64,000 nucleotides of DNA from assembly GCF_057098645.1 (NCBI RefSeq), contig NZ_CM169472.1; one strand, given 5' to 3'. Shown one piece after another: positions 60,118 to 61,548 of the stretch (position 1 is the stretch's first letter; each line of letters opens with the position of its first letter). Made by a program: the position numbers and the translations under genes. The notes under the pieces were generated by a model, which worked only from the letters and a program-made list of their open reading frames with translations, was not told the origin of the DNA and did not search any database.

Positions 60118-60345
60118 ATGTTAACCAGAAGGGAAAAAGACATGCTAAAACAGCAAGATATGACAGAAACCGCCGCCGCAGTCCTTCATTTCTTACCTGC
60201 TGACAAGTGGGTAACGCCACGCATGATGACGAGAACTACCGGAGTAAGCGAAGCCCAGTGCCAGTTAATACTGACTCAGTTAGTTCTGGCGGGTCTGGCG
60301 AAGGATAACGGCGGGTACGGGAATAAATTCAGACGCTGCCAGTAA
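60118..60345 (+). CDS. Small winged-helix protein, FaeA/PapI-like
   Basis: 75-aa ORF …VLHFLPADKWVTPRMMTRTTGVSEAQCQLILTQLVLAGLAKDNGGYGNKF… follows the PapI/FaeA pattern; alternative start at second ATG (about 60142). Confidence 0.45.
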   Translation: MLTRREKDMLKQQDMTETAAAVLHFLPADKWVTPRMMTRTTGVSEAQCQLILTQLVLAGLAKDNGGYGNKFRRCQ

Positions 60346-60495
60346 TGGCGGTTTCCTGCTGTGAAAATGGGCGGCTGGTGGGTGTTGGTAGCACCTGCCA
60401 GCCATTCGCTCATGCTTACTGGTCACAAGCGAACCACGGCCCACTGCTTTAGCGCAAAAGCAGAGTGAGCCTACCAGAGTTACGCTTACTGATCC

Positions 60496-61548
60496 ATGAA
60501 AAATACTGTAAAAATAAACAGTGTTGATTTAATCAACGCTGATTGCCTGCATTTTATTCAGTCCCTGCCTGATAACTCCATTGATCTGATTGTTACCGAT
60601 CCGCCGTACTTCAAAGTGAAGCCCAACGGCTGGGACAATCAGTGGAAAGGGGACGAAGATTACCTGAAGTGGCTGGACCACTGTCTGGCCCAGTTCTGGC
60701 GGGTACTGAAACCAGCCGGAAGCCTTTACCTGTTCTGTGGGCATCGCCTGGCATCTGATATTGAGATCATGATGCGTGAACGTTTCAACGTGCTTAACCA
60801 TATCATCTGGGCGAAGCCGTCCGGACGTTGGAATGGGTGTAATAAAGAAAGTCTGCGCGCATATTTTCCTGCCACAGAGCGCGTTCTGTTTGCTGAACAT
60901 TACCAGGGGCCATATCGCGGCAAAAGTGACGGCTATGCGGCAAAAGAAAGGGAACTCAAACAGCACATAATGGCACCGCTGATATCGTATTTCAGGGATG
61001 CTCGTGCCGAACTGGGTATAACGGCAAAACAAATTGCTGAAGCCACAGGTAAGAAAAATATGGTTTCCCACTGGTTTGGTGCCAGTCAGTGGCAGTTGCC
61101 GAATGAGGCTGACTATCGGAAGTTACAGGCACTGTTTTCCCGTATAGCGGCAGAGAAGTTTCAGGAACAACAACTGGAACAACCACACCACCAGCTGGTG
61201 GCATCTTATGATTCACTGAATCGCAAATATTCTGAATTGCTGGATGAGTTTAAATCTCTCCGGCGCTATTTCTCCGTATCAGTCTCCGTGCCTTATACCG
61301 ATGTCTGGATGCATAAACCCGTTCAGTTCTACCCGGGTAAACATCCGTGTGAGAAACCGGCGGATATGCTCAGGCAAATAATCAATGCCAGTAGTCGACC
61401 TGGTGATCTGGTTGCTGATTTTTTTATGGGATCCGGTTCCACAATAAAAGCAGCAATGGCGCTGGGGCGTCGGGCCTTAGGTGTTGAGCTTGAGTCAGAG
61501 CGGTTTAACCAGACAGTGAAAGAGATAAACGAGCTGGTGGGGAAATAA
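60496..61548 (+). CDS. Orphan DNA methyltransferase, beta-class N6-adenine/N4-cytosine (DPPY before FxGxG)
   Basis: 350-aa ORF; motif [10 protein letters not shown] near the N-terminus and motif [14 protein letters not shown] near the C-terminus; no restriction endonuclease gene adjacent. Confidence 0.85.

Follow-up and report, generated by a model that had tools for sequence, protein, structure and literature searches.

How does a lambdoid prophage hold back a DNA methylase that may harm its own host, and what is the role of the spacer that precedes the methylase gene? Both questions are raised by a locus in a 64,000-nt stretch of contig NZ_CM169472.1 (assembly GCF_057098645.1; hereafter the window, to which all positions refer), in which a small open reading frame (ORF), a 150-bp spacer and a gene for a 350-aa methyltransferase follow one another between the antiterminator gene Q and the holin gene. 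A first-pass annotation of this DNA, made from the sequence alone, took the small ORF for a PapI/FaeA-like regulator, proposed that the pair forms either an epigenetic module or an anti-restriction function, and suggested that the spacer might hold its control region. The last of these suggestions turned out to be more strongly supported than that annotation could know, since the spacer appears, on comparative evidence, to encode an undescribed, widespread and well-supported structured RNA element that leads into the methylase gene.

The spacer as a candidate leader RNA

The spacer (60346-60495, 150 bp) is GC-rich as described, with a GC content of 0.56 against 0.47-0.50 nearby. We compared the locus with those of six phages, namely 1720a-02, SfV (orf47/orf48), phiP27 (L23/L24), Hafnia phage yong2, Morganella phage IME1369_02 and Citrobacter phage phiNP. 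In these a small protein 44-52% identical to that of the window is followed by 138-153 nt and then by a methylase of about 350 aa, so that the length of the spacer is held even though the adjoining small protein has diverged widely. The blocks AAATGGGCGGCTGG, CCAGCCAT, GGCCCA and CATG are invariant across these spacers, and GAGCYTA and GATCYATG nearly so. With one genome taken per species, 80 methylase loci were compared, and nhmmer found the leader before 48 of them, across about twenty genera. The leader of the window and its predicted helices are as follows, the bracketed leader positions counting within 60346-60501:

60359..60495, + strand: conserved structured leader RNA, 137 nt (covariance model R1, 163 bits, one match in the window)
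60368-60372 with 60439-60443, + strand: P1, leader helix (23-27 with 94-98)
60373-60384 with 60392-60403, + strand: P2, leader helix (28-39 with 47-58)
60405-60413 with 60425-60433, + strand: P3, leader helix (60-68 with 80-88)
60444-60450 with 60457-60463, + strand: P4, leader hairpin (99-105 with 112-118)
60465-60470 with 60484-60489, + strand: P5, leader hairpin (120-125 with 139-144)
60490..60498, + strand: methylase start region UGAUCC-AUG, with no GGAGG-type Shine-Dalgarno sequence; UGAUCY abuts the 3' strand of P5

P1 to P3 form a three-way junction, which is followed by the hairpins P4 and P5, the latter stopping 6 nt before the methylase AUG. The highly conserved nucleotides of the junction are GAAA before P1, CAU between P2 and P3, and AACCAAG between P3 and P1. 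At the 3' end UGAUCY is nearly invariant, and the GATC and ATG columns of the leader alignment are invariant or nearly so; UGAUCC is complementary to GGAUCA, which we take to lie near the 3' end of 16S rRNA.

The fold is supported by covariation. Because a first scan of IMG/VR for the methylase returned only copies that were 98-100% identical and hence of no use for this purpose, a scan of species-representative genomes was used instead. MAFFT was used to align 46 distinct leaders without fitting to any structure, the fold being read from the sequences. In this alignment 77.5% of the cells were paired, compared with 30-45% when the partners were slid against each other, and 20 pairs changed on both sides. 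The covariation score was 0.165, a value that none of 500 shuffled alignments reached (0.091+-0.005) and that slid partners did not approach (at most 0.102). Compensatory changes are seen, for example, at pair 62/86, which occurs as C-G (23 leaders), U-A (9) and A-U (5), and at pair 65/83, which is U-A in 32 and C-G in 10; even the near-invariant P1 exchanges G-C for A-U in two distantly related hosts, Mixta and Tatumella. An alignment of 63 distinct leaders that was fitted to the structure gave higher values, with both-side changes in 32 of 39 pairs (12 of 12 in P2, 6 of 9 in P3, 7 of 7 in P4 and 6 of 6 in P5) and a score of 0.344 versus 0.122, but such an alignment leans toward its model, and the unfitted result is therefore the fairer one. 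The covariance model gave 52 matches among 89 sources, all on the + strand and one per source, which lie directly 5' of the methylase ATG wherever the position was checked; it also matches copies in Serratia, a Vibrio and a metagenome-assembled genome. The frequent G-U pairs indicate that the functional strand is the + (mRNA) strand.

Searches in Rfam 15 gave no match within 60346-60495 at the gathering score or at E<=1, and none on the leader core in four relatives; the Rfam matches found nearby were weak, terminator-like and outside the spacer. Among the 45 phage records listed of the 60 that carry the leader, no RNA or regulatory annotation was found in its place, only an occasional "hypothetical protein". 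Thus neither Rfam nor the annotation of phage records yielded a prior description of the leader, no literature search having been aimed at it.

Several simpler readings of the spacer were tried and rejected. ARAGORN found no tRNA or tmRNA there. A hidden ORF of 33 codons (ATGGGCGGC...) is not kept, since the length of the same frame in relatives ranges from 3 to more than 43 codons before the stop, and the indels are not multiples of three. A sigma-70 promoter scan showed neither enrichment nor a site, and a sigma-54-like reading of the P2 loop has the wrong spacing in a loop that is variable. Finally, pairing of the P5 loop (AUCAG) with CUGAU before the AUG as a pseudoknot is not supported, the window and several relatives having an uncompensated U-to-C change.

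A second fold, mutually exclusive with the one described (hereafter folds A and B, respectively), also seems to be conserved, on evidence weaker than that for fold B. It would use three alternative pairings:

60359-60364 with 60423-60428, + strand: A1, CUGUGA with UCACAA (14-19 with 78-83)
60367-60373 with 60407-60413, + strand: A2, AUGGGCG with CGCUCAU, the 5' strand of P3 (22-28 with 62-68)
60438-60444 with 60465-60471, + strand: P4x, GGCCCAC with GUGAGCC, which excludes P5 (93-99 with 120-126)

A2 is paired in 92-95% of cases and its changes are wobble-compatible only; positions 65 and 67 vary by transitions only, a pattern compatible with joint constraint by A2 and P3. A1 shows exchanges of U-A for C-G, and in P4x the pair G93-C126 becomes A-U in the Providencia/Proteus group. 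When folding was constrained to one or the other structure, fold A was the more stable by a median of 5.4 kcal/mol, and yet it is P1 and P3 of fold B that covary. Predicted stability of one fold together with covariation of the other is typical of RNA switches.

The methylase, the winged-helix protein and their linkage

The two protein-coding genes of the cassette are the following:

60496..61548, + strand: M.EcoGII-family beta-class N6-adenine DNA (and RNA) methyltransferase, 350 aa (PF01555 9e-42; phrog_67 3e-103; PADLOC MTase_II 1e-152)
60142..60345, + strand: small winged-helix protein, 67 aa, PHROG 331, function unknown (phrog_331 1.2e-25; ORF open from 60118)

The first-pass annotation had correctly recognized a 350-aa methyltransferase of the beta class. 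The Pfam domain N6_N4_Mtase (PF01555) covers residues 29-341, and DPPY (residues 35-38) precedes FMGSG (residues 310-314), which is the beta-class order and that of M.EcoGII. Nor does a restriction endonuclease gene adjoin it, as had also been noted: holin is the next gene downstream, and PADLOC matches methyltransferase models only. Compared with M.EcoGII, whose sequence we took from Table S1 of PMC11551740 by machine reading with a few letters wrong, the enzyme is 81% identical over its full length (282 of 349 residues), with two single-residue gaps that both fall outside the target-recognition helices at 160-237. The ancestral variants of the same study span a range that includes the window enzyme. 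M.EcoGII and M.EcoGI, from E. coli O104:H4 C227-11, share its length, motif order and prophage location, whereas 19% of residues differ between M.EcoGII and the window enzyme, some of them within helices 160-237. The enzyme of phage 1720a-02 (93% identical) comes with the same small ORF and leader.

According to Murray et al. (2018, PMC5778455), M.EcoGII, like its paralogue M.EcoGI (95% identical), methylates adenine whatever the context, in double- and single-stranded DNA and in RNA, and blocks many restriction enzymes; expression of the two slows cell growth, the prophage does not express them in the lysogen, and M.EcoGII is active when cloned alone. M.EcoGII and variants reconstructed as its ancestors are largely non-sequence-specific (Ochiai et al., PMC11551740). 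Given 81% identity to this non-specific enzyme, sequence-independent adenine methylation is the best inference for the window allele as well. As an orphan beta-class amino-methyltransferase, it would have anti-restriction as its best-supported role, judged by homology, and of the two functions proposed for the pair this is the one that gains ground. The methylase is thus a fresh member of a known, well-characterised family, and anti-restriction is a known kind of phage function. What is not described in the sections of PMC5778455 consulted is an upstream leader or small ORF, and an article on pR' regions (PMC6266700) leaves the methylase unmentioned. The prophage rRNA methyltransferase of Gong et al. 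was considered as a candidate and rejected.

The small ORF requires more revision. Its frame is indeed open for 75 aa over 60118-60345, with the peptide quoted in the first-pass annotation inside it, but a 75-aa protein is not what relatives suggest. Every relative begins at an internal methionine (MLKQQDMTE...), an AAGGGA Shine-Dalgarno sequence precedes the ATG at 60142, and phage Ayreon carries an annotated coding sequence of matching length from that start; the shared start and the Shine-Dalgarno sequence make a protein of 67 aa most likely.

The likeness to PapI and FaeA did not survive the profile search that had been proposed for it. The small protein has no match to FaeA (PF04703) in Pfam at E<=10, nor does any of 29 family members scanned singly, and sequence and profile searches of the Protein Data Bank (PDB) with the small protein gave no match to the PapI/PefI family. 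Matches to other Pfam families are scattered among the 29 relatives, with DprA_WH in eight members (E<=0.001), TrmB, Rrf2 and HTH_45; PADLOC and NCBIfam were uninformative for the small protein. An AlphaFold2 model built on the family alignment (pLDDT 87.9) shows a compact winged helix of topology H-b-H-H-b-b. In Foldseek searches against the PDB, whose E-values are all weak (3.6e-3 or higher) as expected for some 65 residues, the best match is the Zalpha domain of ADAR1 (1qbj; TM 0.83, rmsd 1.1 A over 63 residues), followed by winged helices of IclR, TrmBL2, eS25 and SelB, with PefI (2jt1) at rank 41 (TM 0.61). As modelled, then, the small protein is a generic winged helix and not a PapI/FaeA regulator: with PapI, FaeA and PefI it shares small size and the general fold, and it differs from them in lacking profile similarity and in standing in a lytic late operon rather than in a fimbrial switch.

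Within the family, whose members are otherwise 40-50% identical, predicted helix 3 is the most conserved part, with C40, L44 and Q46 invariant and T45 nearly so. Despite ADAR1 Zalpha being the best fold match, the residues that make its Z-DNA contacts (Asn173, Tyr177 and a Pro-Pro-x-Trp wing) are absent in our alignment to the Zalpha sequence; there the contact positions on the helix correspond to Cys40 and Leu44, helix 3 reads CQLILTQ, and the wing is without PPxW. The other likeness is to the C-terminal winged helix of DprA (PF17782), through the eight relatives mentioned. The C proteins of restriction-modification systems are likewise small DNA-binding proteins encoded beside a methyltransferase gene, but these are Xre-type helix-turn-helix proteins that act at C-box operators and regulate an endonuclease gene, while here an endonuclease, an HTH_3 match and a repeated operator are all lacking. 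The family comprises 526 clusters, of which those listed are stand-alone proteins of 63-117 aa whose organism names, where shown, are all of Enterobacterales; the database labels attached to it, "TrmB family" and "DprA-like winged helix", are without experimental basis.

The linkage of the three parts is close but not symmetrical. In the six phages the cassette follows Q and precedes lysis or stx genes. Look-ups that started from the protein found the same order (Q, winged-helix gene, about 150 nt, methylase, holin) in Salmonella and Klebsiella with different families of Q and holin. Across the 80 methylase loci the small ORF is present at 52, and unrelated genes take its place elsewhere. The winged-helix protein is always found with this methylase family and the methylase often without it, so the former is a facultative accessory. 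Among 5426 complete E. coli genomes, 1323 (about 24%) have DNA matching the cassette, as do many Enterobacterales prophages, including Stx2 phages.

Some copies are incomplete or divergent. In phage phiSTEC1575-Stx2k (L009, 3001-4350; L-numbers denote the relative loci compared with the window), the winged-helix ORF is kept, and the truncated leader and methylase are followed by tRNA genes and stx2k, which shows that the cassette has decayed where toxin genes are inserted. Loci L120-L153 of Xenorhabdus and Photorhabdus keep both the winged-helix ORF and the methylase around a divergent and shorter spacer of 79-103 nt; the covariance model found no match in these spacers, of which only the 5' hairpin resembles the enterobacterial leader. 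In six Xenorhabdus loci from five species (L126, L127, L128, L133, L134 and L140) the methylase homologue begins ME*PVNL (ME*LVNL in L134), codon 3 being an in-frame stop, which could reflect a shared pseudogene, a different true start or recoding.

The late operon and the genes behind the leader core

To find the leader independently of the methylase, IMG/VR was scanned with a pattern, which returned 80 loci, and a second scan added variants. An M.EcoGII-type gene follows the core in 71 of the 80. In the others and in the second scan, the core of P1-P4 precedes a Mom-like gene (phrog_1384, 6e-71), a Dcm-type C5-cytosine methyltransferase gene (TIGR00675, 138 bits), a gene for a methyltransferase fused to ParB, or a holin gene about 90 nt downstream. 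The core is thus a general cassette head, heading at least four unrelated types of DNA-modification gene. In the variant loci that were inspected the core follows a terminator-like hairpin downstream of Q, and in none of the variant loci is there a winged-helix gene. A BLAST search of phage records with the holin-type leader gave a single match.

The Mom-type locus L202 (3476-3530) and the Dcm-type locus L214 (2549-2600) have a common 3' segment, GGAAUACUGUAUA(U/A)AUGACCA. As AUGACC, the first two codons, is thereby common to two unrelated genes, cargo must have been exchanged just after the start codon. A LexA box over this start codon was considered and set aside as a weak resemblance, with five mismatches by eye including the CAG half-site. 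In addition, Rfam isrJ matches lie 120-390 nt upstream of the core in L214 (2084-2162, + strand, 69.7 bits) and, weakly, in L293 (3413-3489, - strand). We suspect that IsrJ is the short pR'-tR' late transcript of such prophages.

In the window, the cassette is embedded among these features:

58460..59212, + strand: antiterminator Q (phrog_127, anti-termination protein Q-like, 2.9e-108; annotated as Q at the equivalent position in Ayreon)
59493-59918, + strand: lipoprotein-like moron, 141 aa (phrog_4748, of unknown function); own terminator 59996-60021
59996..60021, + strand: intrinsic terminator of the moron (terminator scan: AACCCGCCACTGAGCGGGTT then TTTTGT; annotated in Ayreon)
60336..60357, + strand: hairpin CUGCCA-GUAA-UGGCGG, then UUUCCU (read from the sequence; the stop codon of the small ORF lies inside the loop)
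61555..61580, + strand: intrinsic terminator closing the methylase cassette (GGCCACGTCAGGTGGCC then TTTTTATTT; annotated in Ayreon and SfV)
61616..61831, + strand: holin with an MKSM dual start (phrog_9876, phrog_20)
61831-62328, + strand: endolysin, after holin
62313-62792, + strand: Rz, after endolysin

The first-pass annotation had placed the pair in a late region, and the surroundings are indeed such a region, that of a lambdoid prophage, with Q upstream and holin, endolysin and Rz downstream. Phages Ayreon and mEp460 match the DNA at about 98.5% identity, and Ayreon has three annotated terminators in the matched region. The late promoter and the first terminators lie directly downstream of Q, where Ayreon has a terminator annotated at the equivalent position. 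Position 59996 is the 5' boundary of a mobile module made up of small ORF, leader and methylase, since many phages share DNA only from there onward, and the joint is mosaic. At the position equivalent to 60336-60357, relatives (for example L002, L116, L130, L214 and L293) have a hairpin and U-rich tract right before the leader; the terminator scan confirms only that of L202 there.

The 141-aa moron protein has an N-terminus that, read from the sequence, resembles a lipoprotein signal peptide. The moron (59493-60021) is inserted between Q and the methylase module, and many phages with the module from 59996 onward are without it. The holin gene opens with two in-frame start codons (MKSM, 61616-61627, + strand), which we liken to the S107/S105 arrangement of lambda. 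Farther upstream, Rfam matches at the gathering score to isrK (54059-54135) and C4 antisense RNA (54160-54247, + strand) point to a P1/Gifsy-type c4-ant immunity or anti-Q region, apparently of the same prophage. The only tRNA genes that ARAGORN found are three for tRNA-Leu(CAG), in tandem on the minus strand at 41190-41512, and naRNA4 lies at 41652-41734; the tRNA trio presumably marks the host leuQPV neighbourhood, and the prophage boundary would then probably lie between about 41 kb and about 54 kb.

A putative translational gate and its alternatives

Taken together, we lean, by a modest measure, toward a mobile anti-restriction cassette of the lambdoid late operon in which an M.EcoGII-type methylase is kept under a transcriptional lock and a second lock formed by the two-fold leader. 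The methylase would modify adenines regardless of sequence, and progeny phage DNA would thereby escape many restriction systems; such an enzyme would also harm the host, which would account for two locks. The first would lie in transcription: the gene stands behind the terminators at 59996 and the hairpin at 60336, with another terminator at 61555, so that it may be transcribed only by the Q-modified, terminator-resistant RNA polymerase after induction. The second would lie in translation, with the 137-nt leader and its two mutually exclusive folds placed before an AUG that has no GGAGG-type Shine-Dalgarno sequence. In fold B, the three-way junction P1-P2-P3 and P4 would be accompanied by P5 (GUGAGC/GCUUAC) next to the start codon. 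In fold A, a single long hairpin of A1, A2 and P2 would free GGCCCAC to form P4x with GUGAGCC, dissolving P5. The balance between A and B would set the level of methylase translation, and the winged-helix protein would be an accessory, possibly a modulator that binds leader or DNA in the manner of Mu Com.

From this anatomy we infer that the leader may be a translational gate resembling com-mom of phage Mu. In Mu, Com, the product of a small upstream gene, opens a leader hairpin and allows mom to be translated, and in Mu-like prophages non-specific adenine methylases (Hia5, Hin1523, Nma1821) replace mom behind com (PMC6483171, PMC3299994). The two systems have in common a harmful late gene for anti-restriction modification, a small gene immediately upstream, a structured leader at the translation start, and interchangeable cargo (either Mom or an adenine methylase) behind a shared control region. 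The likeness is one of function only. The leader here is a three-way junction with two hairpins and no Rfam match. The proteins differ as well, Com being a four-cysteine zinc finger of about 40-62 aa and the window protein a winged helix with one invariant cysteine (C40) that is dispensable for many leader copies. Transcription would depend on Q antitermination here, and it depends on Dam, OxyR and C at Mu mom.

A number of points weigh against the cassette as just described. The role of the leader as a translational gate and the direction of the switch are deduced from anatomy alone. A2 is without double compensatory changes, and its conservation could partly reflect the likeness of the GCYCA (P3) and GCCCA (P1) strands. 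The non-specific activity of the window methylase is extrapolated from an enzyme that is 81% identical. At least 18 leader-bearing loci, as found by the covariance model among the 80 methylase loci, have no winged-helix gene; together with the absence of this gene from all Mom, Dcm and holin contexts, this implies that the leader works without the winged-helix protein. Lastly, some phages have the full P1-P5 about 90 nt before holin and no modification gene, so the core may serve the late transcript generally (processing, stability or protection from Rho) and not the methylase specifically.

That last point leads to the main rival, in which the core is a general element of lambdoid late transcripts located after the tR' terminators, acting as a determinant of processing or stability, as an insulator against Rho or as an aid to antitermination, with modification genes inserted downstream of it. 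It is a serious contender to which we nevertheless give a minor share of our belief. Loci L264, L291, L293, L302, L305 and apparently L201 have the element between Q and its terminators on one side and holin on the other and are without a modification gene, every upstream sequence that was examined has a terminator-like hairpin before the element, and unrelated cargo genes share the core. Against this rival, the element of the methylase, Mom and Dcm types abuts the start codon (at 6 nt, or 42-50 nt after P1). Within each type the 3' platform, first codons included, is conserved, which fits control of the initiation of that gene, and conserved alternative pairings tie the core to the start-proximal hairpin.

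Alternatively, the winged-helix protein may be more than an accessory, namely a Com-like effector acting in trans that binds the leader RNA, or the same DNA, and shifts the balance of A and B to activate or limit methylase translation. That the winged-helix gene, in several genera and beside Q and holin genes of different families, always stands immediately upstream of leader and methylase would suit such a role, and the leader is the nearest conserved nucleic acid to a protein whose predicted helix 3 (C40, L44, T45, Q46) is its most conserved part. RNA-binding winged helices (SelB, eS25, Zalpha) are among its fold neighbours, and Mu com-mom is a precedent. We still find it rather doubtful, because the leader is unchanged at loci without the protein, because the protein is missing from every Mom, Dcm and holin context, and because M.EcoGII is active when cloned alone (PMC5778455).

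A metabolite riboswitch, with the three-way junction as its aptamer and a ligand that is conjectural (e.g. S-adenosylmethionine, SAM, or S-adenosylhomocysteine, SAH), is unlikely: covarying stems around conserved junction nucleotides, an alternative pairing that overlaps P1 and a position mostly upstream of SAM-consuming enzymes would suit it, but the same core stands before Mom-like genes, which are not methyltransferases, and before holin, and it has no similarity to any Rfam riboswitch class. We regard as very unlikely that the spacer acts as DNA, be it the operator or promoter of a C-protein-like controller or a recombination linker, with its structure incidental. Conserved boundary sequences are known at lambdoid module junctions, and the module boundary at 59996 is a mosaic joint; yet the changes in five helices are compensatory, the covariance model matches the + strand only, the abundant G-U pairs would turn into A-C mismatches if the other strand or a DNA cruciform were the functional form, the promoter scan found no enrichment or site in the spacer, and the small protein is not an Xre-type C protein. 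The epigenetic phase-variation module of a PapI/FaeA-like regulator and the methylase, the other half of the proposal made for the pair, is the least probable of all, since the PapI-like fold (PefI at rank 41) and a GATC just before the methylase AUG are outweighed by the lack of any FaeA profile match in the small protein and its 29 relatives, by the position of both genes in a Q-dependent lytic operon behind terminators, by a closest characterised enzyme that has no recognition sequence and is silent in lysogens, and by neighbours (Q, moron, methylase, holin) that offer no fimbrial or Lrp/GATC-switch context.

Returning to the cassette with its two locks, a bolder version of it can be put forward tentatively: the leader might represent a new class of RNA switch that responds to a specific trigger and gates the translation of interchangeable, host-toxic modification enzymes (M.EcoGII-type, Dcm-type, Mom-like and ParB-fused) in lambdoid late operons. 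Candidate triggers would be the winged-helix protein, the methylase itself, which may methylate adenines in RNA, a metabolite, or the kinetics of folding under the Q-modified polymerase. If true, this would explain the silence of M.EcoGII in lysogens.

Neither "TrmB family regulator" nor "PapI-like" is a justified database label for the small protein. For the methylase family, M.EcoGII is widely used for footprinting of chromatin and RNA, and the question of how phages control so harmful an enzyme has so far been left at "silent in the lysogen". That the natural methylase gene comes with a strongly covarying RNA leader provides a defined element for studying the control of phage anti-restriction functions, and the leader cassette may be the lambdoid counterpart of the classical com-mom system of Mu.

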